Part shown: positions 2,341 to 19,750 of the stretch, piece after piece | Layout: each line of letters begins with the position of its first letter | Numbering within the stretch: the stretch's first letter is position 1 | Program-made: the position numbers and the translations under genes | NCBI RefSeq assembly: GCF_000016745.1 | Contig: NC_009483.1 | Location: 3,840,001-3,872,000 of the forward strand | DNA: 32,000 nt | Direction of reading: 5' to 3' | Origin: Geotalea uraniireducens Rf4 | GTDB taxonomy: Bacteria > Desulfobacterota > Desulfuromonadia > Geobacterales > Geobacteraceae | Notes under the pieces: model-generated | Databases searched by the model: none | The model's input: the letters and a program-made list of their open reading frames with translations, nothing else | What the model was told of the DNA's origin: nothing

Positions 2341-2706
2341 TTAAGGAAGCGTCTCTTCCTCATTGCCGGCACGATTGTAGTCGTCCTGAAAGCGGACGAT
2401 ATCGTCCTCTCCGAGATATTCACCGCTCTGCACCTCGATGATGGTCAGGGGAATGACGCCGGGATTTTCCAGGCGGTGATTTGTACCGATGGGGATGAAG
2501 GTGGACTCGTTGATGTTTATAATCCGCTCCCGGTCGCCGCAGGTGACCCTGGCTGTACCGGAAACGACAATCCAGTGCTCGCTGCGATGATGGTGCATCT
2601 GCAGCGAGAGCCGCTGCCCGGGATTCACCTCGATCCGCTTGATCTTGTAATTCTTGTTTTCCTCAAGGACCGTGTACGTTCCCCATGGTCTCTCACCGCG
2701 TTCCAT
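2341..2706 (-). CDS. Cupin-fold protein equivalent to the C-terminal mannose-6-phosphate isomerase domain of type II PMI/GMP (ManC)
   Basis: The sequence RPWGTYTVLEENKNYKIKRIEVNPGQRLSLQMHHHRSEHWIVVSGTARV...NHRLENPG...IEVQSGEYLGEDDIVRFQDDY is the classic ManC C-terminal cupin. The ORF track starts at 2751. I prefer ATG 2706..2704 (MERGERPWG) because it overlaps the rfbD TGA by one base (TGATG) and follows GAGGAGG. Confidence 0.8.
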   Translation of the reverse strand: MERGERPWGTYTVLEENKNYKIKRIEVNPGQRLSLQMHHHRSEHWIVVSGTARVTCGDRERIININESTFIPIGTNHRLENPGVIPLTIIEVQSGEYLGEDDIVRFQDDYNRAGNEEETLP

Positions 2707-3536
2707 CACTGCCTCCTCAGATTTAAGTAGTTTTTCAGGGCCTCCTGCCACGGCTGTGGCTGAAAGCCCGCGTCACGGTTCAACTTGCCGCAGTCGAGGG
2801 TCGAGTAGAGCGGCCGCGGCGCGGGACGACCCAGTTCGGCGGTGGACATGGGATTGACCGTGATCCCCATCCCCGCCTCGGCAAAAATAACCCGGGCAAA
2901 CTCGTTCCAGGAACAGAACCCGCCGTTGGCCGCATGGTACGTGCCGCAGCACCCCTTGTCGATCAGCGCCTTGATGGCCAGGCTGAGGTCCACGGTCCAG
3001 GTGGGGGAACCGATCTGGTCGTCCACCACGGAAAGCTCCTTTTTCTCCGCGGCCAGGCGGAGCATGGTCTCGACGAAGTTTTTGCCGTGCAGGCCGTAAA
3101 GCCACTGGGTCCGCACAATGAGGTGGTCGGGGTTGAAACAGGCGTTCATCTCGCCGGCCAGCTTGGACTCGCCGTAAACACTGAGTGGACGTGGGGGATC
3201 GTCCTCCAGGTAGGGGCTCCCCTTGCCGCCGTCAAAGACGTAATCGGTGCTTATCTGCACCAGTTTGGCGCCGATTTCCTTGCTTATCAGTGCCAGGTGG
3301 GCGACACCTTCGCCATTAACCTGCATGGCCAGTTCCTGGTTGCTCTCGCAGCCATCCACGTCGGTATAGGCGGCGGCATTGATCACCACCCGGGGTTTGA
3401 GGGTGACGAGCACCTTCTGCACCGATTCCATCGATGTTATGTCGATATCTTCGATATCCACCCCACGCGCCTCAGTGCCCAGAAGCGTCATCAGGTCCTG
3501 CCCCAGCATCCCTTTTGCTCCGACAACGAGTATCAT
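2706..3536 (-). CDS. rfbD: dTDP-4-dehydrorhamnose reductase
   Basis: These are the last 276 aa of the 645-aa track ORF 2706..4643: MILVVGAKGMLGQDLM...AAAYTDVDGCE...STDYVFDG...PLSVYGESKLAGE. This shows the RmlD Rossmann fold and YxxxK motif. ATG 3536..3534 overlaps the rfbB TAA by 1 nt (TAATG). The upstream 369 aa of the track ORF are out-of-frame read-through of rfbB. Confidence 0.93.
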   Translation of the reverse strand: MILVVGAKGMLGQDLMTLLGTEARGVDIEDIDITSMESVQKVLVTLKPRVVINAAAYTDVDGCESNQELAMQVNGEGVAHLALISKEIGAKLVQISTDYVFDGGKGSPYLEDDPPRPLSVYGESKLAGEMNACFNPDHLIVRTQWLYGLHGKNFVETMLRLAAEKKELSVVDDQIGSPTWTVDLSLAIKALIDKGCCGTYHAANGGFCSWNEFARVIFAEAGMGITVNPMSTAELGRPAPRPLYSTLDCGKLNRDAGFQPQPWQEALKNYLNLRRQ

Positions 3537-4609
3537 TACCTTCCTCCGTACATTGTTTCGTAATAGTCGCGATATGCGCCGGACGTCACCGTTCCCACCC
3601 ACTCCTGGTTGGCCAGGTACCAGTCGATGGTTTCGGCGATGCCGCGCTCGAAGGTGTAGGACGGCTCCCAGGAAAGCTCCCGGCGCATCCTGGAGGCGTC
3701 GATGGCATAGCGGCGATCGTGCCCCGGCCGGTCCTTGACAAAGGTGATGAGCTGCCGGTTTTCTCCCGACGACCGCCCCAGCTTGGCGTCGAGCAGGTCG
3801 CAAACCAGGTTGACGATGTCGATGTTCCGCCATTCGTTGTTGCCGCCGATGTTGTACACCTGTCCGAGCCCACCCGTCTTGAGGACGGTTTCGATGGCAA
3901 TGGAATGGTCCTTCACATGGAGCCAGTCGCGGACGTTGAGCCCGTCGCCGTAGACCGGCAGCGGCTTTTTGTTCATGATGTTGTGGATCATGAGCGGGAT
4001 CAGTTTTTCCGGAAAGTGATAAGGGCCGTAATTGTTGGAGCAGCGGGTATTGAGGGTGGGGAAGCCGTAGGTCTCGTGATAGGCCCGCACCAGCAGGTCG
4101 GCCCCCGCCTTGCTCGCGGAATAGGGAGAATTGGGGGCGAGCGGCGTCTCTTCGGTAAAAAAACCGGTATCGCCGAGGGAACCGTAGACCTCGTCGGTGG
4201 AAACCTGGAGGAAGCGGAATTCCGGCACCACACGGGCCTGCCAGTGCTTGCGGCTCTCTTCCAGGAGGACCTGGGAGCCGAGCACATTGGTGCGGACAAA
4301 GATCTCCGGCCCGGTAATGGAGCGGTCCACGTGGGACTCTGCTGCAAAGTGGACCACTGCGTCGATCCGCTCCTCGGCCAGGAGCCGCGCCACCAGCGCA
4401 CTGTCGCAGATGTCCCCCTTGACGAAGCGGTAAGAGGGGTTGTTCTCCACCCCTTTCAGGTTTTCCAGGTTGCCTGCGTAGGTGAGCACGTCCAGGTTGA
4501 CCAGGCGGCAGCCGGGATTGCCGGCCATGAAGCTGTTGATGAAGTTCGAGCCGATGAATCCTGCGCCACCGGTGACGAGGATGGCGCGCGGGGTAAAGTG
4601 CTCCGACAT
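3536..4609 (-). CDS. rfbB: dTDP-glucose 4,6-dehydratase
   Basis: The ORF is 357 aa: MSEHFTPRAILVTGGAGFIGSNFI...NLDVLTYAGNLENL...STDEVYG...SPYSASKAGADLLVRAY. These are RmlB hallmarks. An AGGAGG RBS sits 5 nt upstream of the ATG. Confidence 0.95.
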   Translation of the reverse strand: MSEHFTPRAILVTGGAGFIGSNFINSFMAGNPGCRLVNLDVLTYAGNLENLKGVENNPSYRFVKGDICDSALVARLLAEERIDAVVHFAAESHVDRSITGPEIFVRTNVLGSQVLLEESRKHWQARVVPEFRFLQVSTDEVYGSLGDTGFFTEETPLAPNSPYSASKAGADLLVRAYHETYGFPTLNTRCSNNYGPYHFPEKLIPLMIHNIMNKKPLPVYGDGLNVRDWLHVKDHSIAIETVLKTGGLGQVYNIGGNNEWRNIDIVNLVCDLLDAKLGRSSGENRQLITFVKDRPGHDRRYAIDASRMRRELSWEPSYTFERGIAETIDWYLANQEWVGTVTSGAYRDYYETMYGGR

Positions 4610-4647
4610 CTGTTCCTCCTGAATTTATTGATATAATCGACAACTCG

Positions 4648-6186
4648 TCAAGACATCATGATATATCCCTGTTTCGACAACCACTCTATATCATCGAGGA
4701 ATCTTGTCGTATTACCGATTGCCGGTTTCAATGACGGTGCATATTGGGCAACCAGATTGGGAATATCTTTAAGTTTAAGACCATAGAATGGTCCAAATCC
4801 CGGAACGAGAACATATCCACTGGATTTTTGCGTTGAGACGGTTTTGCCATTAACTGCGACCGTATCCAGGATCAGATAGCGGCGAGACATTTCCATCCTT
4901 GTCTCAGAGAGGCTGAACTTGTGTTTTTCCGTTTTAAGTATATTCCCGTCATCGACTGCAGATGTGAAAACTCTTTCGATTTCAGAAATAGTGTAACCGT
5001 ACTCTGCCAGCGCCTTTACAGCTTGGGTCTTATCGCCATCGAACTTCAACAAAGCGTGTTCAAGTTCCAGATCTGTCAGAAAGCCTATCCGTTGAAGTTC
5101 ACGGCGCAACCTGATCGGCGCGCTTTTGATCTGGAAAAACGAATGGGTATTTTTCATTTGGAGGAGGGTTTTCAGATCGCCGTTAAGAGAAGCAAAATAA
5201 CCGGCGCCGTCAACATATTCAACAAACAAATGATTTACCGTAAAACGCCTTGCAGATGAGGTCTGATCTACGTTTTTATGACTGACACTGCCGGAATCTC
5301 CTGCATAAAACTGACATTGAACGAACAGTTTAGGCTGCCATCCGACAGTGTTGTAGGGAAGGATAAAATCGTATTTCCTAACTTTGGTCCGATCTGAGCT
5401 GTCGGCTTTTTTTCTTGCGGCAGCAGTATTAATCACTACATCATCATTATTGAAATCTACTCCTTGCTTCATACCCCAATCAGTCATCATTGTTCGCAAC
5501 AGCTGTTCGGGATTATGCCCCCCTGAAGCGGTAACCGATCCCCTAATCTTGAAAATAACCAGGGGCGATAATAGGGATTTCTCTTTGTTGTAAGGTTTTA
5601 GAGAATAGTAACAGTTACCGATGGCCCATAGTTGAGACAAGTAAGCGTCATCTGAAAGAGTAAATTCGAAAAACTCTCGTAACAGTTCAGTCTGTATGTC
5701 CGTGTACTTTTCTAAATTAGCGACAATTGTCATAAATTGTTCTGCTTTTATGACCCTGGGCCAATCCAGATAATTCAAGCATCCTTTACTCACAACAGGC
5801 ATACTGTTAAGTATATTTTTTTGTCGGATGTAAATCGGCAACTGGCACTTGCAGTTATTGTCGGATTTTCCGCTAACAAGATAGATAAGGTCTGATATCG
5901 ACGTGAGAAATTTCTTTGCCGATTTCTTATCGGAGTTAGCTATTTCCACCTCTACTGCTTCGGCTATTTTGCTTATGTCAGGCCGTTTTTTCAGCGAAAA
6001 TTTGTCGGTCGTCCTTCCCAAAACCTCAAAAATTCGCACAGCGCTCTCCATCTCCTTATTAAAGCGCTCCGTATCGCGAATTTCACCCAGCGTCGGCGTC
6101 AACCATATATCGAACTCCAACAAGGCATCTGTGCTGCTAATCGGTGTTAACGGCAATTTCATGATTTGCATCTCCACGGTTAGCAT
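4648..6186 (-). CDS. Uncharacterised 504-512 aa protein, probable nuclease/effector partner of the overlapping DNA methyltransferase
   Basis: This is a long clean ORF in the AT-rich island, on the same strand as the MTase, and its 5' end overlaps the MTase 3' end. Candidate starts are ATG 6186, 6171 and 6162. The last is 9 nt after GGAG, so it is preferred and gives 504 aa. The central segment KYDFILPYNTVGWQPKLFVQCQFYAGDSGSVSHKNVDQ resembles, from memory, the D..(E)x(N/K)FYSGSGSK core of DpnII/MboI-type PD-(D/E)xK endonucleases. I did not recognise any other family. Confidence 0.7.
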   Translation of the reverse strand: MLTVEMQIMKLPLTPISSTDALLEFDIWLTPTLGEIRDTERFNKEMESAVRIFEVLGRTTDKFSLKKRPDISKIAEAVEVEIANSDKKSAKKFLTSISDLIYLVSGKSDNNCKCQLPIYIRQKNILNSMPVVSKGCLNYLDWPRVIKAEQFMTIVANLEKYTDIQTELLREFFEFTLSDDAYLSQLWAIGNCYYSLKPYNKEKSLLSPLVIFKIRGSVTASGGHNPEQLLRTMMTDWGMKQGVDFNNDDVVINTAAARKKADSSDRTKVRKYDFILPYNTVGWQPKLFVQCQFYAGDSGSVSHKNVDQTSSARRFTVNHLFVEYVDGAGYFASLNGDLKTLLQMKNTHSFFQIKSAPIRLRRELQRIGFLTDLELEHALLKFDGDKTQAVKALAEYGYTISEIERVFTSAVDDGNILKTEKHKFSLSETRMEMSRRYLILDTVAVNGKTVSTQKSSGYVLVPGFGPFYGLKLKDIPNLVAQYAPSLKPAIGNTTRFLDDIEWLSKQGYIMMS

Positions 6187-7927
6187 GAATCCAGAATTTT
6201 TCGTCTATCTGTTTGGAAATTTTGTGCAGGCATTTGAATTGCGACGATTGAGCCAATACGTCATTAACCGTATGCAGGGTCAGTTCACCGTCTGTTTTGC
6301 CGTTTTCCACACTGTATTGAAAGGTAAACCACTCTACGGTTAATGCGTCAAGAATATCGCTGCTATGGGCAAAACCTTTCTTGTACACGATTTCATGCGT
6401 CAACCGCAAAGTTTCGTCAAAGACATTAAATAGCCCCTTGCTGAAAACATGCCTCTTAATGGAACCATCGGGTTTTCTGAAGTGGATAAGGACATCGCTT
6501 TTAGGGGCTTTGGTCATAACGCTTTCCGTTAGCGACGGTGCGCTCCTCCGTATCGGAGCAACCACAACCAACTCAAAGCCGCTGTCCTTACAGGCTGAAA
6601 TTAATGAGTTCCAAACTTTGATATCCTTGTTATTGAACGTCACGCTCATCCAGCGCCCCGGCTTTAGAAGACGATAAGCTTCGGCAAATACTTTTTTCAA
6701 CCCTGCTGCATAGTCGACTTCAGACTTGTTCCGGTAGGGATTAAAGGCAACTTCCGCATCGAGGTCTTCATGGAATCCCAGCCAGAGATTCCACAGCATA
6801 GACAGTTCGCCGTACTGAATCCCCTCGCCGCCGTAAGGTGGATCGGTAAGGATGTAATCCACGGAATTATCCTGAAGTGAGGCAAATTTCTTCCGCGAAT
6901 CATGGATCAGCACTTTACCCCAATTTGCGGCATTATCAGGCAGGACTTCTTTTAATTCATTTACCGCAGCTTTTGTCCGCACCAATCTATTTTTAAAATA
7001 ATGAAGCACATTAAGTTCCTGCCAATCGGCCGGTAGCCAGTAACAGTTAATTTTCCAGCTCGGGCCGCCTGCGTTTTCCTTATAATCCGCGATCATCCTC
7101 GACGATTGAGCGAGATTCGCTGTAAAGGTAAGCTTTAGAAACCTCTGACAAACTTCATCTTCCACCTGAGAAATCAATGACCAGAGCCGAGACAATACCA
7201 GCAGGTTACGGGGAGTAAACAGGTCGGAAAACTTTTCGATTTTCCGTCTTTTCAGCTTTTGCATCTCCCAGCCGTAATACATTTCCATATCCGGACAGGA
7301 AACTTCATACTGAGCTGATGCTTTCCGCAAATCCTCATCCGTAGGCAGATGTTCCAGTTTCTTTTTACATTTAGTGCAGTTATAACGCACTGAGACAAGT
7401 TCTTCTTTATGCCATCCAAACGATCTTGGTATAACTTCTGCTCCACACAAGATACAGCGGCTTCCGTAAATATCATATAAGTGAGGCAGTAACTCAGCCA
7501 TTATTGTAGCCGCAGCATGGTCAATCTCTTCACATTTATTGCCGGCTATCAATGTTTCGGTTAAATAAACGGCAAAAGGGTTAAGATCAAAACCGACAGC
7601 TTTTCTTTTTTCAATAATAGCTTCAACAACAGTAATACCACTGCCACAAAAGGGATCTAAGACCAATTCCCCTTCTTTTGAAAAAAATGAAATACACTTG
7701 CTAAATACATTTGCCGGTTTTTTCCCCCAGTATTTATGTAAATTATGCCTAGCTGGGAAGGTATCTGGAATAAGGATTCCAAGATGGGTATTGATGATGT
7801 CCGCATCGATGCTGGAGATATCAAGTTCCCCACTCTGTTGAGCATTCACATAAGACGACAAACTGCCCATGAGCGGTAACTCTTGCTGATCGTACCTGCT
7901 GTATTTCCTGCGGCTTGCTGTGGGCAT
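6137..7927 (-). CDS. DNA methyltransferase (DPPY catalytic motif, N6-adenine/N4-cytosine type) with an internal CxxC..CxxC zinc ribbon
   Basis: The ORF is 596 aa. The AdoMet motif I, LVLDPFCGSGITVVEA, is preceded by HKYWGKKP. Then comes CILC-x22-CTKC, and motif IV, DYILTDPPYGGEGIQYGELSMLWNLWL, lies about 260 aa downstream. So the order is motif I, then insert, then motif IV. This resembles a shortened COG1743/DUF1156-type Zn-ribbon methylase. No clear SD precedes ATG 7927. Confidence 0.85.
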   Translation of the reverse strand: MPTASRRKYSRYDQQELPLMGSLSSYVNAQQSGELDISSIDADIINTHLGILIPDTFPARHNLHKYWGKKPANVFSKCISFFSKEGELVLDPFCGSGITVVEAIIEKRKAVGFDLNPFAVYLTETLIAGNKCEEIDHAAATIMAELLPHLYDIYGSRCILCGAEVIPRSFGWHKEELVSVRYNCTKCKKKLEHLPTDEDLRKASAQYEVSCPDMEMYYGWEMQKLKRRKIEKFSDLFTPRNLLVLSRLWSLISQVEDEVCQRFLKLTFTANLAQSSRMIADYKENAGGPSWKINCYWLPADWQELNVLHYFKNRLVRTKAAVNELKEVLPDNAANWGKVLIHDSRKKFASLQDNSVDYILTDPPYGGEGIQYGELSMLWNLWLGFHEDLDAEVAFNPYRNKSEVDYAAGLKKVFAEAYRLLKPGRWMSVTFNNKDIKVWNSLISACKDSGFELVVVAPIRRSAPSLTESVMTKAPKSDVLIHFRKPDGSIKRHVFSKGLFNVFDETLRLTHEIVYKKGFAHSSDILDALTVEWFTFQYSVENGKTDGELTLHTVNDVLAQSSQFKCLHKISKQIDEKFWIHANRGDANHEIAVNTD

Positions 7928-7960
7928 ATATATTCCATGTTTACATAAAAGGTTTAAGAC

Positions 7961-10027
7961 CTAAAACGCCTTGATCGGTCCGATGGCGCCGATACCGGCG
8001 AGATTGAAGGTCACCATGTATTCCCGGTTGTCCGGGCGGTCACGGTAGGAAAAGGTCACGCTCCAGCACTGGTGTTTATATTCAAGGGCGTAGTAGGACT
8101 CGATAAAGCCCCCCTTATCAAAGGAATACCGGTTAGTGTAATTGAAAACGAACGGTTTGACAAGGGCCACGCCAATCCGCCCCTCCAGGTACTCCACTTC
8201 GCCGCGGGAAAAGCGGTAGCCGAGGCCGGCACGGTTGTCGCTGCCGTCGCTGTAATCGGCGGAAAGGTTTGCGGTGGAAAAGCGCCCCTGATAGGTGTTG
8301 AAGCGGCTGTCCAGATTGAGGGATATCTCAGGAGTCGGCGTAAAGCGCGATTCCAGACGGAGGTCCGTCAAGGTGCGCCCCTCGTCCACCAGGGTGAGAA
8401 GGTCGCGCCGTGAACCGCTTGCCTGGTATCCCTGGCTGATCCGCAGATAGAGAAGGTCACGGTAAACCGGGGAACCATCGGCCTGAATGACCTTGCCGGT
8501 CAGGTAATTCGTCAGGGAAAGGGTAAGGAGGTTCTGGCCCACAACCCGGTCGTCAAAGTCGAAGAATGGGAGCTGATCCTGGCTTCTCTCCTGGACAAAG
8601 GAATAACTCACTTCCGGCACCAGCAGATGTCGCACTTTGCGCACCGCCCCCCACGCAGTATCATAAACCCGGGCAAACCTGGTCGATGCCGAAACACCGG
8701 CGTCCGCAAGACCCTCTCCGTGGGAACCCCGGCCCGGATCGGCGCCGTAGGCGTTGTAAAGGCGCTGGCCGTAACCGGCAAAAGCGGAAACATCCAGGGC
8801 TGAAACCGGCTGGAAATACGTGGTGACGGTCGGGTGCAGGGTGAAACGCTGCCCGTTCACCCCCTCTTCGCGATAAAAGTTGACGAGGCTTGAGTCAAGG
8901 GAGAAAAAAAGCGGCGTCGCGCCGATTTTGCGCCGGATGCCGGTGAGCGACACCGCCGGGAGCTTCTGCAAGGTTGCGCTGTTGTTCGGAGCGTAGAGAT
9001 CCTCCACGTACCTTAGTTCCGCGGTCAGCGCATAATCCTGCCACTTTTTGGTCAGCGATACCGTGGATTCGAGGTCCTGCCGGTTATATTCACCGGCAAC
9101 CTCGGCAAAGTCGGTGTAAAAATCCCGGTCAGTGGCCATGTTGATATCGGATCTGATGTTCAGGCTGTCGGAAACCGCTTCCAGGTGCTTCTCAACAACC
9201 GCACCCCGGAACCGTGATTGGGACGTGTCGAATATGCCGTAGCCGCGAAATATCCCTTCGCTGCCGCGTTGTCGCATGTAGCGATAATCAAGGCCGGTGC
9301 CGACCCCTCTTTTGCTCTGGATATCCAGATCAAAGGTGGCATCCTGGCTGGGACTTATGGCCCAGTAAAAGGGAAGGTCGAAGTTGAACCCTTTTTTGGA
9401 AGAATTGCGTATCAGGGGAATGAGAAATCCGGACTGCCGCTCCCGCTTGACGGGAAAGATGATGTAGGGGGTGTAGAGGAGCGGAAGATCTTTCACGTAG
9501 AACACGACATCTTTACCGGTGGCGTACTCTTCCAGGGTCACATCCAGGTCGCGGGCGGTGAAACGCCAACTGGGAGAGTCGCCGTCGCATGTGGTGAAGG
9601 AACCGCGTTCCATGCGGTAATCCTCCGTCCCCACCTTGGTCATCTTGCTGCTGCGGATATGAAAATTCGGTTTCTTGATGAACAGGTCGCCATTGGAGAC
9701 CTCTCCCAGTTCCGTCGTCGTGTTCAGGGTGAGGCTGTCACCATGCAGCACGTCACCATCCCTCTCCATGACTACGCCGCCGCTGGCAAATGCCTCACTC
9801 TGCTCCTCCCTGAAGATTACGCTGTCTGCCAGGAGAGTGACGCCGTCGTAGCGCATGCGCACATTCCCCTTGGCCTGGTAGGTTGCACTCCTGCTTTCGT
9901 AGGAAAGGGTATCGGCCGTGATCTTAACGCCACCGGCAGGGGAGTTTTCTTCGGCGAAAGCGACCTGGAAAAGAAGGAACAGCACGAAGATATTTGAGAA
10001 AAGCGCTAACACAATCGGATGTTTCAT
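7961..10027 (-). CDS. lptD: LPS-assembly outer-membrane protein LptD (OstA family)
   Basis: The track ORF is 7961..10168. I prefer ATG 10027 (residue M48 of the track ORF), which gives the signal peptide MKHPIVLALFSNIFVLFLLFQVAFA. It has an OstA N-domain (ITADTLSYE...YQAKGNVRM) and a large barrel, and it ends in ...GAIGPIKAF (aromatic terminus). Confidence 0.88.
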   Translation of the reverse strand: MKHPIVLALFSNIFVLFLLFQVAFAEENSPAGGVKITADTLSYESRSATYQAKGNVRMRYDGVTLLADSVIFREEQSEAFASGGVVMERDGDVLHGDSLTLNTTTELGEVSNGDLFIKKPNFHIRSSKMTKVGTEDYRMERGSFTTCDGDSPSWRFTARDLDVTLEEYATGKDVVFYVKDLPLLYTPYIIFPVKRERQSGFLIPLIRNSSKKGFNFDLPFYWAISPSQDATFDLDIQSKRGVGTGLDYRYMRQRGSEGIFRGYGIFDTSQSRFRGAVVEKHLEAVSDSLNIRSDINMATDRDFYTDFAEVAGEYNRQDLESTVSLTKKWQDYALTAELRYVEDLYAPNNSATLQKLPAVSLTGIRRKIGATPLFFSLDSSLVNFYREEGVNGQRFTLHPTVTTYFQPVSALDVSAFAGYGQRLYNAYGADPGRGSHGEGLADAGVSASTRFARVYDTAWGAVRKVRHLLVPEVSYSFVQERSQDQLPFFDFDDRVVGQNLLTLSLTNYLTGKVIQADGSPVYRDLLYLRISQGYQASGSRRDLLTLVDEGRTLTDLRLESRFTPTPEISLNLDSRFNTYQGRFSTANLSADYSDGSDNRAGLGYRFSRGEVEYLEGRIGVALVKPFVFNYTNRYSFDKGGFIESYYALEYKHQCWSVTFSYRDRPDNREYMVTFNLAGIGAIGPIKAF

Positions 10028-10092
10028 TATTCTCTCGTGATAATCGGCAAGAAAAGGGGGTAGCGTACCATACAGATGAAACGGAAGTCGCA

Positions 10093-11367
10093 TCAGCCGC
10101 GAAAAGGTTCGAAATTCTTTGAAAGGAGAACTGCCCGTGCCTCGCCAACCGTGAAGAGGGAGCCGCAAACCAGTATCAGGTCGTCCGGTCCGGCAATATC
10201 CCGGGCAGACGAAAGTCCTGCGGCAACAGTACCCGCATCATGGGCCGTTACCCCTCTGGAACGGCAGAATTCGGCAAGCTTCTCCGACGGCAGAGCACGC
10301 GCAAGGGATGGTGCGACGGCCAACATTTCGTCAGCAAGGGGCAGGAGCGGCCCAAGGATACCGTCGACATCCTTGTCACCCATCATGCCGGCAACAATCA
10401 GGAGGCGATCGCGCGGAATGTCTTCAAGCGCCTCAGCCAGGGCCTTACTGCCGGCAGGATTGTGCGCGCCGTCCAGCAGTATCCGGGGGGATGTACCGAG
10501 TATCTCCATCCTCCCTGGCCAGTGCGCTTTTTCGATCCCACTGCGCAAGGTACCCGCATCCAGGGGAAATCCCATGCCGTCAAGAAGCTCTGCCGCCGCT
10601 AAAGCAGAGGCCGCATTCGCCTGTTGATAGCGCCCGGCAAGTCCGGGGCGCAAACCGTCCATTTCCAGGCCGATCCCCCGGTATGACAGCCCGGTATCCG
10701 ACCAGAAAGCGGTAAATGCCTCACCATAGCCATAGAAGGGGCTTTTCATCTCCAGACAGCGATTCCTGATAACCGACAGTGCATCCTGTTCCTGGGGGGA
10801 AACCACGACGGACCGCCCCACCTTTATGACCCCTGCTTTTTCCCCGGCAATCGCGGCCAGGGAAGCGCCCAGATAATCGCAATGGTCGTAGGCGACGGGA
10901 GTGATGAGCGAAAGGATGCCGGAAAGGGCGTTGGTGGCGTCGAGCCGCCCTCCCATCCCCACTTCCATGATCGCCAGCTGGACCTTTTGTTCTGCAAAGT
11001 AAAGGGTGGCCATGGCAGTAACCAGCTCGAAAAATGTGGTTTCAGGTGGAGCTGCGGCGATGACCTGCTCAGCCAGGTGAACCACTTCCTCTTCGGCTAT
11101 CTCACGGCCGTTGATGCGAATGCGTTCGGTGAAATTTATCAGGTGCGGAGAAGTAAAGAGCCCGACCCGGTGCCCCCCTTCGGCAAGCATGGAAGCGAGG
11201 AAGCTGGAGGTGGAACCCTTGCCGTTGGTGCCGGCAACGTGGACGGTCTTGAAGGCATCCTGCGGGTTATGGAGCGCCTGCAGAGTAGCGGTGATCCTCT
11301 CCAGCCCCGGTTTCATACCGAAACGGCCAAGGCCGTAGATATATGAGAGGGTCTCCTGATAGGTCAT
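10093..11367 (-). CDS. folC: Bifunctional folylpolyglutamate synthase / dihydrofolate synthase
   Basis: The ORF is 424 aa: MTYQETLSYIYGLGRFGMKPGLERITATLQAL...VHVAGTNGKGSTSSFLASML. It has the Mur-ligase P-loop and a FolC-type N-terminus. Confidence 0.93.
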   Translation of the reverse strand: MTYQETLSYIYGLGRFGMKPGLERITATLQALHNPQDAFKTVHVAGTNGKGSTSSFLASMLAEGGHRVGLFTSPHLINFTERIRINGREIAEEEVVHLAEQVIAAAPPETTFFELVTAMATLYFAEQKVQLAIMEVGMGGRLDATNALSGILSLITPVAYDHCDYLGASLAAIAGEKAGVIKVGRSVVVSPQEQDALSVIRNRCLEMKSPFYGYGEAFTAFWSDTGLSYRGIGLEMDGLRPGLAGRYQQANAASALAAAELLDGMGFPLDAGTLRSGIEKAHWPGRMEILGTSPRILLDGAHNPAGSKALAEALEDIPRDRLLIVAGMMGDKDVDGILGPLLPLADEMLAVAPSLARALPSEKLAEFCRSRGVTAHDAGTVAAGLSSARDIAGPDDLILVCGSLFTVGEARAVLLSKNFEPFRG

Positions 11368-11829: not shown

Positions 11830-12678
11830 CTACTGCCGGTACAACATCTTCAGTATCTGCGACAACCGTTGCCGCATATCCTTCCGCTCGACGATGATAT
11901 CGACCATGCCGTGATCGAGAAGGTATTCGGCACGCTGGAAGCCGACGGGCAGCTTCTGGCGGATGGTCTGCTCGATGACCCGTGGGCCGGCAAAACCTAT
12001 CAGGGCCTTTGGTTCGGACATGTTGATGTCGCCCAGCATGGCAAAACTTGCCGTAACGCCGCCGGTGGTGGGATCTGTAAGTATGGAGATGAACGGCAGT
12101 CCCTGTTCCTTCAGTTTTGCCAGGGCCGCCGAGGTCTTGGCCATTTGCATCAGAGACAGAATGCTTTCCTGCATGCGCGCCCCGCCGGAAGCAGAGATGA
12201 TGATCACCGGCGTACGCTTCTCAATCCCCCGCTCAATGGCCCGCGTGATCTTCTCACCGACCACGCTCCCCATGCTGCCGCCCATGAAGGAAAAGTCAAA
12301 TACCGCCATCTGCACCGGGGTCCCTTCTATCTGCCCTTCGCCACAGATAATGGCGTCTTTTGAGCCCCCTTTGGCTACGGCAGCATTAATCCGCTCCTGG
12401 TAACTCTTGGAATCCTTGAAATTAAGAAAATCAACCGACACCATATTCGCATCAAACTCGACGAAGCTTCCCTGGTCGAGAAGGATTTCCAGTCTTTTGC
12501 GGGCAGTAATGCGGAAATGAAAATTGCATTTTGGGCAAACATTGAGGTTATTCACGATCTCTTTGGAGATAATCACCTCACCGCAGTTCTGGCATTTTGT
12601 CCAGAGCCCCTCAGGTACCCGGACCCGTTTCTTTTCAACCTGCTCCGGCGCAACATTGCTTTTTTTGAATAAGCCCAT
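11830..12678 (-). CDS. accD: Acetyl-CoA carboxylase carboxyltransferase beta subunit
   Basis: The sequence MGLFKKS...[38 protein letters not shown] has the AccD Zn ribbon, followed by the carboxyltransferase domain. The track ORF starts at 12711. I prefer ATG 12678 (M12), which is preceded by AAGAGG. Confidence 0.93.
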
Positions 12679-12773
12679 ATTCAACCTCTTATGGCAGCAT
12701 TTGCCAGCCAATTTTTATTTTAAATAAAACCGTCTATTAACAGAAAGGGGGGTGGATGTCAATGTTTAAACGG

Positions 12774-16341: not shown

Positions 16342-17694
16342 TCAGAAACTATACGTCACACCAAGCAGGGTAATTCTCGAAATCACTGCCGGGGCATCTT
16401 CATACCGGTATTCAAGGGTGACCTTCACATTCTGCAAAGGGGTATACGCAATGGCGGGGATATAACGACGCACGATGCCGACACCGTCATCCTGGTGCTC
16501 ATAGCGAAACAGACCGACGGCATTAACAGGCGAACCGAGGTAGTATTCCGCCTCGGAAGCCAGCACGACGGAATCCCTTTCAAGGGGAACCGTGGCGAAA
16601 TCCGGGTTGTCGTCCCGCCCTTTTACGCCGCTCAATTTGACTCTCAAACGTTTATACTGGAGGTCCATGTCGCCACCGGCGCGATAAAATCTGTTTTTGG
16701 TGAAGGTATCGGTGTCGTTGATGGTATTGCGACCGAAATAACCATATGTGCCGAACGTCACCGACAGATAGTCCCACACGCTGTCGCTGTCGAGGTCGAC
16801 CGCCGGTTCATTGCCCAGTAAATCGGAACCGCCTACCTTCACCGAAACATGACCATAACCTTCTTTTGCGTTTTGCCCCTTCCGGTCCACAATTCCGCCG
16901 GCGACAAACAGCCTTTTCCAGAGGACGACGTTGGCTTCAAGCGCATCCTGGCTTGATTCCAGGGTGAACGGCGAGCTCCCGACCCGGTACGACAGGGTAG
17001 CCAGGGAGGAGGCGGTCGTAACCTTGTTGTTTTTCTTCCAGAGGCTGAGCTTCGGTTCAAACCTGCCGAATTTCAGGTTTATGGGTGTATCCAGGATGTG
17101 GCGCCACTGCAGAAACAGTTCATGCAGGTTATTGGTGTCGGTGGTGCTGTCCGCATGCGTCGTCAACAGGTATGAGGCAAAAAATCCGAACTTGTCACGG
17201 AAGGCGCCGCCGGCTTGAAAAGCGAAAGTCCGGGTTGAAAAATCGAATTTGTCGCCATCAGCCGCATGCTCGTCATAGACGATGTTTTGCGTTGCCCGGA
17301 AGGAGAGGGGGAGCTGTTCTGGTATGCCGGCAAGCCAGAGTCCCTCGTTTCCTTTATTCTTCGGTTCCTGTGCCTGGTCGTTCTCAACCTTGGAAGTGGC
17401 TGCCTGGGCCTTTAATTTATCGAGCAATTCCGGGTCGCCTTCACCGGCAATGGCAGCGGCAGCAGCTGGAGATGCCGGAGCTTTCGCTTCGGAAGGCTTG
17501 ACCAGCGGAACATAGCTGTTTTTTTGGAAAGCATCCCCGTACTCGTTAAGTTCCGGATAAATTGTATGGCAGGTAGAGCATTCGGTTTTATGCTGACGAC
17601 TAAAAGCAGGAATTGCGTGCGCCTTACCGGCGCTCGTAAGCGTGAAAGCGCCGATCAGAAGCAAAACAAGCTTGATCGTGAATCGGCTTTGCAT
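16342..17694 (-). CDS. Fused monohaem cytochrome c / beta-barrel outer-membrane protein (Cyc2-like architecture)
   Basis: The track ORF starts at GTG 17712. I prefer ATG 17694, 6 nt after AGGAGG. The signal peptide is MQSRFTIKLVLLLIGAFTLTSAGKAHA. CSTCH (nt 17566..17580) begins at mature residue 12. It is followed by an Ala/Pro/Lys-rich linker and then ~340 aa with about 16 amphipathic beta-strand-like segments by eye. The C-terminus ...ITLLGVTYSF fits the BAM beta-signal. Confidence 0.85.
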   Translation of the reverse strand: MQSRFTIKLVLLLIGAFTLTSAGKAHAIPAFSRQHKTECSTCHTIYPELNEYGDAFQKNSYVPLVKPSEAKAPASPAAAAAIAGEGDPELLDKLKAQAATSKVENDQAQEPKNKGNEGLWLAGIPEQLPLSFRATQNIVYDEHAADGDKFDFSTRTFAFQAGGAFRDKFGFFASYLLTTHADSTTDTNNLHELFLQWRHILDTPINLKFGRFEPKLSLWKKNNKVTTASSLATLSYRVGSSPFTLESSQDALEANVVLWKRLFVAGGIVDRKGQNAKEGYGHVSVKVGGSDLLGNEPAVDLDSDSVWDYLSVTFGTYGYFGRNTINDTDTFTKNRFYRAGGDMDLQYKRLRVKLSGVKGRDDNPDFATVPLERDSVVLASEAEYYLGSPVNAVGLFRYEHQDDGVGIVRRYIPAIAYTPLQNVKVTLEYRYEDAPAVISRITLLGVTYSF

Positions 17695-17968
17695 GGATCC
17701 CCTCCTCTGCACATTTCTCAGTTATTCATCAAATTTGCATCGAATACGACGCTAAACGATCATCAATACATTTATGAAAATAATTACATATATTTAGTGC
17801 TTAACACGGTAAAATACTGGCTAGTATTACAATATTGAGCATATGAAGTCAACTTAACATAAATAAGTGCAAGATAATATTAGTAAGCCGATGAGCTTTC
17901 AGATATTTTTTTATACATTTTTGACGACATAAATGGTATAAGGCTCCTAATTAAAGGAGGGTGAGGGG
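17695..17968. promoter_or_regulatory. AT-rich divergent control region between the cytochrome-porin operon and the decahaem cytochrome gene
   Basis: This is 274 nt that looks AT-rich by eye (no count was made). There is an extended -10-like TGGTATAAG at 17934..17942, about 12 nt before the AGGAGG RBS (17955..17960) of the + strand gene. There is a palindrome AATACT-ggct-AGTATT at 17813..17828. On the minus strand there is TTGACT-17-TAATAC at about 17824..17852. None of these is individually decisive. Confidence 0.4.
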
Positions 17969-19750
17969 ATGAAAAATGGATTTTTCACATCATTAATTTT
18001 ACTTTCTCTGCTGATTGCAGTCATGACAGGTTGCGGCAGTGACAATTCAGGAAGCCAGACTGCACTTTCAACCTTTGCTGCCTCAGAAGCATGCATACGC
18101 TGTCATACGACAACTAATAATATTTCTCCGGTTACCGGCATGAACATTGTCGAGGAATGGAAGCTTTCCACCCACAATACCAGCAACGGAGCGAGTTGCA
18201 TTGACTGCCATGGGGAAGGAAACGGTCACCCGAACAGCTGCGGGGTCTGCCATGGCGGCTCTTCACCCGTATCAGCCGGATTCCATAACCCGGAACAGGC
18301 CGGTCTCTGTAACAATTGCCACGGCCCGAATCACCCGGACGACGTTATGATCCTCAATTCGCCGCAGCATTTCGGCAACATGACCGCTAGTTTGCCCAAC
18401 ATCAAGTATCGTGCATCCTTTGTCAGCTCACAATATGTGAGCAATTGCCGCAAATGCCATAATCCCCACAATCCCAGCAGCGCCATCGAGATCGCCCGTC
18501 AGTGGGCTGACAGCGGGCACGGCAACACTCTTGCCGGGGCAAGGACAGCTTACGACTTCAAGACACGCGGCACCTATGAACCAGTAAACCTGTCATTCCA
18601 AAATAATTGTGTTCGTTGTCACACCACGACCGGCTTCATCAACTTTGTCGCTTCAGGCTACAGTGACCAGAGACCGTTCGCAGGTCCACAGTACCCCGTA
18701 GTCCTGTATCCGTCAGTCTCAACCGACAAGACCAAAGAAGTTACCGGATGCAATGCCTGCCACGACGACGGCAAAGGGAACGCCTATAGCTATAAACTTA
18801 GGGCGCTTCCCCAGGTGCGGATCTATTACAACTACTCTTCGGCGAACACCTCACCAACGGTTAAGCTAAACAATATGCCGGTATATTTTCCCGACGCAGG
18901 CCCGTCCAACATATGCATCAGCTGTCATGCAGGGCGCGGCATCGGGCGAATGATCACTGTTGCAGCTGCCAACTTTTTCAACTTTAGTACAAGCACAAGC
19001 ATAAGCGCCCATGATTTCGCCGGCGCCGGAAATCTGTTCCAGCAGAGCGGCTATGAATATAGCGGACGGAGCTATACCTCATCCGCCTTCCTCCATGACG
19101 AGATCGGCTTCAACAACACCAACAGCACCGGCAGCCGCGGTCCCTGCATCACCTGCCACATGAAGAGTGACGAGTCGCACTCTTTTCTACCCGTGACATT
19201 CGATAATCAGCAGGCATCCGATCCGTCTGCCGTAGCAATCGCCGGCATCATCAGCCGTACCTGCTCCAAGTGCCACAACGGCGCCATCCAACCGGCATGG
19301 ACTGCGCAAACCCTTCAGGCGAGGCGAGCGGGATTTCAAGCTGCGCTAGCGATACTTAATGGAGTTCTAGCTCAAAAAAGAGGCAGCACGAAGACCTGGG
19401 AGAAACTTGACGGAGTTATCATAAAAGGAACAGGCCCCAACACCATGGGTGCCAACTTTAATTATGGATTGCTTAAAAATGATTGGGGCGCTTACGCCCA
19501 CAACGACCTCTATGCCAAGCGACTGATCTATGACTCACTTGACTGGCTTTACGACCGCGACTTGGTCTCGAAGACCAACACCGGTGGGTACGCGACTGAC
19601 GTGGAGGCAGCGATCAACGGTGTCACCACGGCAAAAAATCCGTGGAACAGTGCAGTAATATATTCGAGTCCACAGCTGGATGGACCGACCGGCCTGAAAG
19701 CTTTGGCTATCAACTACTTGCTCGGCGGGCCGGGAGGTAACCGTCCCTAG
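17969..19750 (+). CDS. Decahaem c-type cytochrome lipoprotein
   Basis: The ORF is 593 aa. Its lipoprotein signal is MKNGFFTSLILLSLLIAVMTGC. It has ten CxxCH motifs: CIRCH, CIDCH, CGVCH, CNNCH, CRKCH, CVRCH, CNACH, CISCH, CITCH and CSKCH. The last ~150 aa are haem-free. The RBS is strong. Confidence 0.9.
   Translation: MKNGFFTSLILLSLLIAVMTGCGSDNSGSQTALSTFAASEACIRCHTTTNNISPVTGMNIVEEWKLSTHNTSNGASCIDCHGEGNGHPNSCGVCHGGSSPVSAGFHNPEQAGLCNNCHGPNHPDDVMILNSPQHFGNMTASLPNIKYRASFVSSQYVSNCRKCHNPHNPSSAIEIARQWADSGHGNTLAGARTAYDFKTRGTYEPVNLSFQNNCVRCHTTTGFINFVASGYSDQRPFAGPQYPVVLYPSVSTDKTKEVTGCNACHDDGKGNAYSYKLRALPQVRIYYNYSSANTSPTVKLNNMPVYFPDAGPSNICISCHAGRGIGRMITVAAANFFNFSTSTSISAHDFAGAGNLFQQSGYEYSGRSYTSSAFLHDEIGFNNTNSTGSRGPCITCHMKSDESHSFLPVTFDNQQASDPSAVAIAGIISRTCSKCHNGAIQPAWTAQTLQARRAGFQAALAILNGVLAQKRGSTKTWEKLDGVIIKGTGPNTMGANFNYGLLKNDWGAYAHNDLYAKRLIYDSLDWLYDRDLVSKTNTGGYATDVEAAINGVTTAKNPWNSAVIYSSPQLDGPTGLKALAINYLLGGPGGNRP

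Follow-up and report, generated by a model that had tools for sequence, protein, structure and literature searches.

A low-GC two-gene island between lptD and rfbB of Geotalea uraniireducens: a probable Type II restriction-modification system with an endonuclease from an unannotated family

Between the genes lptD and rfbB of Geotalea uraniireducens Rf4 there is a two-gene island of low guanine-plus-cytosine (GC) content (4648-7927), and it raises two questions: what the pair of encoded proteins does, and how the genes came to lie inside a string of housekeeping genes. The island belongs to a 32-kb stretch of DNA (contig NC_009483.1, positions 3,840,001 to 3,872,000), which is called the window in this text and in which positions and strands of host DNA are counted. 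Its first gene encodes a DNA methyltransferase (MTase) of 596 residues and its second gene a protein of 504 residues. A first-pass annotation of the sequence had taken the pair for a horizontally acquired defence module of the restriction-modification (R-M) type. The evidence gathered here makes it quite likely that the island arrived by horizontal transfer and is an orthodox two-gene Type II R-M system, and that its endonuclease comes from an unannotated family.

The methyltransferase and the protein family linked to it

All four genes of the locus, namely lptD, the MTase gene, the gene of the 504-residue protein (open reading frame 2, ORF2) and rfbB, are located on the minus strand. The MTase gene (6137..7927) starts at the ATG at 7927, 33 nt after the lptD stop codon (7961-7963), and ORF2 (4648..6162) ends in a stop codon (4648-4650) that is separated by 38 nt from the rfbB start codon (ATG at 4609); with these two junction spacers included, the whole inserted island extends over 4610..7960. 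ORF2 overlaps the 3' end of the MTase gene by 50 nt if translation begins at the ATG at 6186, which gives 512 residues, or by 26 nt if it begins at the ATG at 6162, which has a GGAG 9 nt upstream and gives the 504-residue form, one of the forms on the genome record. The spacers, the alternative overlaps and the common strand had been described in the first-pass annotation, and all of them are exact on the ORF coordinates. With only two genes between lptD and rfbB, the island contains no ATPase, helicase or specificity subunit, as is the case in Type II R-M systems.

The first gene matches the Pfam profile N6_N4_Mtase (5.9e-22), the DNA methyltransferase families of PHROGs and, in PADLOC, the models PglXI (1.1e-56) and mad2 (1.3e-15) together with many MTase_II models, while its match to the NCBIfam DUF1156 antiphage model (8e-10) reaches 37 bits against a cut-off of 1000. 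Three elements can be read from the protein sequence in this order: the S-adenosylmethionine (SAM)-binding motif I, DPFCGSG (residues 91-97, 7637..7657, minus strand), which matches the end of the Pfam profile; a zinc-ribbon-like CxxC-x22-CxxC element (residues 158-187, 7367..7456, minus strand); and the catalytic motif IV, DPPY (residues 362-365, 6833..6844, minus strand). The zinc ribbon and the target-recognition region are thus situated between the SAM-binding motif and the catalytic motif. Sequence matches in PDB are limited to the SAM-binding region and include both N4-cytosine and N6-adenine enzymes. Judged by these matches and motifs, the first gene is an N6/N4 DNA methyltransferase with motifs I and IV intact and, as in Type II systems, a stand-alone enzyme that carries both the SAM-binding and the catalytic motif.

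The fact that the best PADLOC match is PglXI, followed at a distance by mad2, and that the DUF1156 antiphage model is also matched, though far under its cut-off, could be taken to mean that the island is what remains of a larger defence system based on methylation (of the BREX, MADS or DUF1156 type), or a minimal version of one. This is extremely unlikely: the island holds two genes only and none of the BREX, MADS or DUF1156 partner genes; PglZ, BrxC, BrxL and other system genes are absent from beside the MTase, where the flanks are lptD and rfbB; the two-gene unit recurs alone at two different chromosomal sites; and the effector family pairs equally well with plain C5 MTases.

The second gene is of a different nature, given that searches of Pfam, PADLOC, NCBIfam, PHROGs and PDB (the latter by single sequence and by profile) returned nothing meaningful for the 504-residue protein, a result in line with the earlier remark that the effector could not be placed in a known family. 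It is, on the evidence of sequence searches, a member of a large conserved family and not an orphan. More than 857 homologues came out of a word-indexed search, every one of them unnamed or called "hypothetical protein" and devoid of a precomputed Pfam domain; when 1.84 billion representatives were searched exhaustively with a profile, 295 clusters (defined at 50% identity) were obtained at E <= 1e-3, of which 142 remain at E <= 1e-30. The members present in RefSeq and UniProt (from Hahella, Pseudomonas, Oceanisphaera, Xenorhabdus and Anaeromassilibacillus) are likewise all "hypothetical" or "uncharacterized", and a literature search with family accessions and conserved peptide motifs found no paper. 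No match was obtained with tblastn in collections of plasmids and phages, and the viral contigs of IMG/VR gave only three family matches, of weak context, so the family appears to be rarely borne by phages. Two candidate leads were discarded: a survey of PD-(D/E)XK proteins that names G. uraniireducens concerns DUF524 and not the 504-residue protein, and the DpnII/MboI family (PF04556) was matched by one of 43 members at E 0.011 and by none of five consensus sequences, which amounts to noise.

The decisive evidence on this family comes from its genomic context. One genome per GTDB species was scanned, which gave 93 relatives, and the best 80 loci were analysed; their ORFs were called and searched with seed MTases, and Pfam confirmed ten unassigned neighbours as N6_N4_Mtase (1e-14 to 4e-39). 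These 80 loci come from Geobacteraceae, Planctomycetota, Cyanobacteria, Chloroflexota, Acidobacteriota, Bacteroidota, Bacillota, Verrucomicrobiota, Campylobacterota and Gammaproteobacteria. A DNA MTase is adjacent to the homologue of the 504-residue protein in 72 of the 80 and fused to it in two. Four loci have no MTase, each of which ends no more than 120 nt upstream of the gene, and in the last two the homologue is cut by the end of the contig and is not among the called ORFs, with a C5 MTase still upstream in both. Consequently, in every evaluable locus among the best 80 the family is linked to a DNA MTase, and the linkage is obligate; the effector is encoded by a separate, adjacent gene consistently accompanied by an MTase, which is the arrangement of Type II R-M systems.

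The partner itself is not constant. C5 MTases (PF00145, approximately 445 residues) occur in 32 of the 80 loci, nearly always immediately upstream and overlapping, and five of these 32 loci also contain Vsr; N6/N4 MTases of approximately 250 residues, upstream or downstream of the homologue, occur in 28; N6/N4 MTases of 420-460 residues, mostly on the divergent strand, occur in eight (Gammaproteobacteria and Sulfuricurvum); and the long zinc-ribbon N6/N4 MTases (580-596 residues) are found in four, in the Geobacter clade. The two fusions of a C5 MTase with the homologue, each a single ORF of 993 residues, are both cyanobacterial, and the same fusion is seen in a cluster representative of 990 residues (P0121). 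Across the loci the partners represent four architectures and three gene orders, and the MTase class varies with the clade of the family. Type II nucleases classically show this pattern, in which MTase classes are exchanged around a single conserved partner. The presence of an MTase in every evaluable locus, together with this change of MTase class, is the signature of a Type II restriction endonuclease, and on this genomic evidence it is inferred, with good support, that the 504-residue protein acts as the restriction endonuclease in a Type II system. The R-M-type module proposed in the first-pass annotation thus agrees with what is found, a DNA MTase next to an effector whose family is linked to MTases wherever this could be evaluated.

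Some features of individual loci are worth recording. The fusions, natural M-R proteins of cyanobacterial metagenome-assembled genomes (MAGs) of Microcoleus and Leptolyngbya, lie at 4627-7608 in both loci concerned (L018 and L021), and one source names the fused ORF "DNA (cytosine-5)-methyltransferase 1". Among the N6/N4 partners of approximately 250 residues, those of loci L046 (7515-8264), L064 (7511-8284) and L070 (7084-7836), from Bacillota, Bacteroidota and Fibrobacter, share the sequence LDPWYNKG, in which DPWY stands at the position of the expected catalytic DPPY. Directly downstream of the R-M pair of another locus (L004, 10045-12074) there is a cluster of ThiF, Prok-E2_E and Multi_ubiq genes, a ubiquitin-like conjugation module of a type that occurs in defence islands. 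In locus L002 (1006-13819) two phage-integrase genes flank a group made up of the R-M pair, Vsr, an AAA ATPase and a fragment of a DNA ligase; these integrase flanks indicate that in other hosts the cassette rides an integrative element, unlike in the window. Integrase-flanked islands with Vsr, and the ThiF/E2/multi-ubiquitin neighbour, fit the picture of defence islands.

The recognition site was sought by two routes. The observed/expected ratios of palindromes, with the loci grouped by MTase type, revealed only a generic depletion (GGTACC, GAGCTC, GGATCC, CTAG) and none that was specific to the family. The matches of the partner MTases in PDB and NCBIfam cover the conserved catalytic parts only (M.HaeIII, M.HhaI, dcm and CcrM-like enzymes) and gave no recognition site, and the homologues of these MTases on plasmids are less than 32% identical and have generic names.

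Predicted structure and conserved residues of the 504-residue protein

The AlphaFold2 (AF2) model of the 504-residue protein, built with an alignment of 43 sequences, has a mean predicted local distance difference test (pLDDT) score of 84.3 and a predicted template modelling (pTM) score of 0.67, and is divided into three parts: residues 1-230, approximately 231-360, and 361-504. The N-terminal domain (5473..6162, minus strand) is mostly helical, with pLDDT mostly between 80 and 94. The C-terminal region (4651..5082, minus strand) consists of helices and short hairpins modelled at pLDDT 90-97. In a Foldseek comparison with PDB, the whole model matched winged-helix proteins alone, and these only locally (MntR, MarR and DtxR, E 0.3-1), the N-terminal domain had no structural match, and the same model found nothing in a viral library. 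The winged-helix-like units make it probable that the C-terminal region is the DNA-binding part of the protein.

This resemblance to regulators also suggests another possibility, in which the 504-residue protein would be a non-toxic DNA-binding partner of the MTase (a regulator or a targeting factor) and the island would be limited to modification; the lack of a nuclease signature in the sequence is in line with it. It is nevertheless considered very unlikely, inasmuch as the MTases that accompany the family belong to four unrelated architectures, ordinarily function by themselves, and are found with it in three gene orders and as a C5 fusion, the contexts with Vsr and with integrase-flanked defence islands fit R-M, and a protein of 504 residues with 57 invariant positions far exceeds the needs of a regulator.

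Since the whole model gave either winged-helix matches or none, residues 192-362 were modelled separately (pLDDT 65). The top Foldseek match of this domain model is the complex of the restriction enzyme BstEII with DNA (9ibq; E 3.2e-3, probability 0.99, template modelling (TM) score 0.47), and further matches are MspJI, the DdmDE complex, VC1899, Can2, PspGI, MUS81-EME1 and FAAP24. Each match is weak when taken singly, and the signal resides in the enrichment of PD-(D/E)XK nucleases among them. In residues 231-360 (5083..5472, minus strand), the candidate nuclease domain, the predicted order of strands and helices fits α-β-β-β-α-β, as seen in the model of pLDDT 65 whose best match has E 3e-3. 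On these predictions, the central α/β core is likely to belong to the PD-(D/E)XK superfamily.

Conservation was scored across 26 sequences of 35-70% identity, and 57 positions of the 504-residue protein are invariant, including acidic, lysine and histidine residues in the core. The invariant residues of the core are K260, R262, D265, Q282, Q284, Y286, D289, H295, K296, D299, Q300, R305 and E315, and D318 and D329 vary little or not at all; a separate set lies in the N-terminal domain (E16, D18, W20, T22, D101, N102, N103, K105, H216, E219 and R223). One block, QxQFYAGDSGSVSHK(N/V)(V/I)DQT (residues 282-301, 5260..5319, minus strand), is nearly unchanged throughout the family and yet has a pLDDT below 50 in the AF2 model; it is probably the active-site strand with its loop. 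If the core is of the PD-(D/E)XK type, D265 would occupy the "PD" position, and Lys296 is located in the loop that follows the QxQ strand. Variant triads containing glutamine are found in genuine nucleases, such as the QxK of HinP1I and the ExQ of BglII. A double glutamine with a lysine supplied by the loop would possibly be one more variant site.

Several observations weigh against the assignment of the protein as a nuclease of a Type II system. There is no sequence-level link between it and a known nuclease in the five collections searched (Pfam, PADLOC, NCBIfam, PHROGs and PDB); the whole-protein model matches no nuclease in PDB; the structural matches of the core are weak (best E 3e-3, TM 0.47, domain model of pLDDT 65); and the canonical D…(D/E)xK motif is not seen, the (D/E)xK position being occupied by the invariant Q282-x-Q284. 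Moreover, the family may already have a characterised member in REBASE.

The same observations lend some weight to the idea that the island is indeed an R-M system, but that its effector damages unmethylated DNA by a chemistry other than that of a PD-(D/E)XK phosphodiesterase, for instance by base excision, as in the restriction glycosylase PabI, or by catalysis through the invariant His-Lys/GDSGS loop. The canonical (D/E)xK is replaced by an invariant QxQ, the most conserved element is an unusual loop rich in glycine and serine that contains H295-K296 and is not placed by AF2, the matches to nuclease folds are marginal, and the 230-residue N-terminal domain has invariant Glu, Asp, Asn and Lys residues of its own and no structural match. 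Even so, this idea is held to be improbable, considering that the best structural neighbours of the core remain restriction nucleases and that glutamine-variant triads exist in such genuine nucleases as HinP1I and BglII.

Under the preferred reading, a nuclease of the PD-(D/E)XK type in a Type II system, the 596-residue MTase would mark a specific sequence in the host chromosome and the 504-residue protein would cut unmethylated copies of that sequence. The C-terminal winged helices would bind DNA and read the sequence, and cleavage would fall to the central core, whose centre would be formed by D265, the QxQ strand and the invariant GDSGSVSHK loop. With the MTase gene in first position and overlapping the nuclease gene, modification could be made before, or along with, restriction. 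This division of labour, with winged helices that read, a core that cuts and a gene order and overlap that coordinate expression, has weaker support than the assignment of the system itself. A bolder proposal, that the protein founds a family of restriction effectors with a non-canonical site (D265, QxQ and the GDSGSVSHK loop), an N-terminal domain of new fold and an uncharacterised mechanism or specificity, is rather doubtful.

Arrival and expression of the cassette at the lptD-rfbB site

The composition of the island sets it apart from its surroundings. As a whole (4648-7927) it has 43.6% GC, approximately five standard deviations below the remaining 3.28-kb windows of the 32-kb sequence (mean 54.3%, standard deviation 2.1, minimum 50.3), and in windows of 300 nt the GC fraction is 0.37-0.48 from approximately 4650 to 7950 and 0.56-0.63 on either side. 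The GC content at third codon positions is 0.46 in each island gene, as compared with 0.82 in rfbB, 0.71 in lptD and 0.65 in folC. The contrast claimed in the first-pass annotation is therefore kept at both window sizes, although the value of 30-38% that it gave for the island corresponds to local minima and not to the mean. Elsewhere in the window, the GC fraction falls to 0.44-0.47 at 12300-12750, in or near an accD-like ORF (11830-12711), and to 0.46 at 17001-18000, where it takes in the beginning of an ORF on the minus strand (16342-17712) together with the divergent gap that precedes the ORF 17969-19750.

The flanking genes belong to the host. Upstream, lptD (7961..10027, or to 10168, minus strand) is identified by its Pfam matches (LptD and LptD_2) and by homologues named LPS-assembly protein LptD; downstream, the rfbB/rmlB-like dehydratase gene (3536..4609, minus strand) is identified by the Pfam matches Epimerase and GDP_Man_Dehyd and by the homologues that follow lptD in two relatives (L085 and L086). 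Two further ORFs, 2706-4643 (minus strand, 645 residues) and 3434-4636 (plus strand, 400 residues), overlap rfbB/rfbD and are frame artefacts of high-GC coding DNA.

In these two relatives, a metagenomic Geobacteraceae contig (LptD 73% identical) and Geotalea toluenoxydans (LptD 66% identical), the site is empty: rfbB starts 40-50 nt after lptD and is followed by rfbD, and the upstream synteny (MCP, trpA, accD, folC) is kept. The alignment of the junctions indicates that the island takes the place of the short lptD-rfbB spacer (approximately 40 nt), up to the ribosome-binding site of rfbB (CAGGAGGAACAGATG). A second Geobacter genome (L005, the MAG DAIEGL010000018) has the island at the same site, and here the DNA identity with the window is 96-98% in each 300-nt bin from 4500 to 7800, against 82-94% on the rfbB side and 71-90% on the lptD/folC side, with a sharp shift at either border. 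The proteins behave in the same way: MTase 98.7% and ORF2 96.9% identical, versus LptD 83.5%, FolC 81.6% and RfbD 76%. The rfbB product is 94% identical. In every host the cassette has 43-46% GC, while its surroundings have 55-61%.

The island is thus of foreign origin, and the earlier claim of horizontal acquisition is upheld by the contrast in composition, the two empty sites and the jump in identity relative to L005; the adjacency of lptD and rfbB in relatives devoid of the island, suggested as a check in the first-pass annotation, is what two genomes display. One could argue instead that the low GC is not a foreign trait, and that the genes are ancestral to Geobacteraceae at the lptD-rfbB site and were lost in some lineages. 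In favour of this argument, a version of the island with 70-74% protein identity is found at the same site in a far more distant relative (LptD 60% identical). Little credence can be given to it, however, because relatives that are closer by their LptD (73% and 66%) carry empty sites, the island is far better conserved relative to L005 than the housekeeping flanks (96-98% against 82-91% identity), with sharp borders, and its GC content holds in hosts of higher GC. Furthermore, a copy of the pair located between uvrC and miaA (L001), with the same 70-74% identity to the pair of the window, places these genes at another site altogether.

With respect to the means of transfer, there is no tRNA gene within the window, no direct repeat was found to bracket the island, and the island, with room for two genes only, contains no integrase or transposase, all of which had been stated in the first-pass annotation. 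The marks of an integrase-mobilised genomic island (recombinase, tRNA target and direct repeats) are consequently absent at the island. In view of the lack of a recombinase or repeat and of the conserved housekeeping flanks, transfer by recombination in the flanks is the most economical inference, and the cassette most likely spreads among Geobacteraceae via homologous recombination in the conserved flanking genes.

The position of the cassette bears on its expression. It lies inside the lptD-rfbB unit, in the same orientation, and neither the lptD-MTase junction nor the ORF2-rfbB junction has a terminator-like site on the minus strand; for these reasons it is probably expressed by read-through from lptD, a possibility raised in the first-pass annotation. 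The 33-nt spacer between lptD and the MTase gene (7928-7960) is too short for a promoter. In the empty-site relatives lptD and rfbB are approximately 40 nt apart and presumably co-transcribed, which implies that the cassette is read through or else that rfbB uses a promoter-like sequence, TTGACG-18-TAAATT (4651-4622, minus strand), that spans the ORF2 stop codon just upstream of rfbB. This sequence could restore the expression of rfbB after the insertion; the count of promoter-like sites in the region is at chance level. In the distant relative L087, with the cassette at the same lptD-rfbB site, the leader is AT-rich and 126 nt long (10065-10190), and in L001 the gap upstream of the MTase gene measures approximately 400 nt. 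A promoter belonging to the cassette could fit only in these longer leaders, and not in the 33 nt of the window.

Significance and comparison with known systems

The general understanding of R-M systems is unchanged by this finding and, restriction endonucleases being very diverse, a new sequence family will not surprise specialists. Its value lies in part in closing an annotation gap, as a family of approximately 295 clusters is "hypothetical" throughout and is missed by the programs that search for defence systems; a profile for the family would let such R-M systems be recognised automatically, and biochemical work on it might reveal a new restriction specificity or a variant of the active site. 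To this are added two points of interest, the unusual conserved site (QxQ with the GDSGSVSHK loop) and the exchange of cassettes at a fixed site. In the latter respect, the locus is a clean case of R-M cassette exchange between related genomes, at one place in the essential-gene operon lptD-rfbB and apparently free of recombinases.

Compared with the MTases of known defence systems, the window MTase shares with PglX/PglXI and with the DUF1156-type, BREX-like enzymes the SAM motif, the zinc ribbon and the DPPY layout (PADLOC PglXI, 1e-56). It differs from PglX/PglXI in its length, 596 residues as opposed to the 919 positions of the PglXI model, and in the lack of BREX partner genes, and from the DUF1156 type in its score, 37 bits against the NCBIfam cut-off of 1000.

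As regards the 504-residue protein, the best structural neighbours of its α/β core are BstEII (9ibq; probability 0.99, TM 0.47, 157 aligned columns), PspGI (3bm3) and MspJI (4f0p). Unlike them, it is approximately twice as long, adds a helical N-terminal domain of 230 residues and the C-terminal winged helices, and has QxQ and not (D/E)xK; the sequence identity is 12-16%, with E values of 3e-3 or worse. In FokI, SdaI and NaeI, winged-helix domains serve for recognition and a PD-(D/E)XK domain apart from them for cleavage. The predicted winged-helix units and separate α/β nuclease-like core of the 504-residue protein recall this architecture, a likeness that serves as a lead only; the domain order and the N-terminal domain are different, and no homology was detected.

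The closest comparison is with orthodox Type II R-M systems. The 504-residue protein, a putative nuclease, departs from them in that it is unmatched by the restriction-enzyme families of Pfam, NCBIfam and PADLOC. In the remaining respects the likeness is close: two tightly coupled genes, with the MTase first and neither ATPase nor specificity subunit; an island of foreign composition that is mobile; and an effector family that pairs with 5-methylcytosine or with N6/N4 MTases according to the host, sometimes in the company of Vsr. For this reason, the module is best classed with the orthodox Type II R-M systems and not among exotic defence systems.

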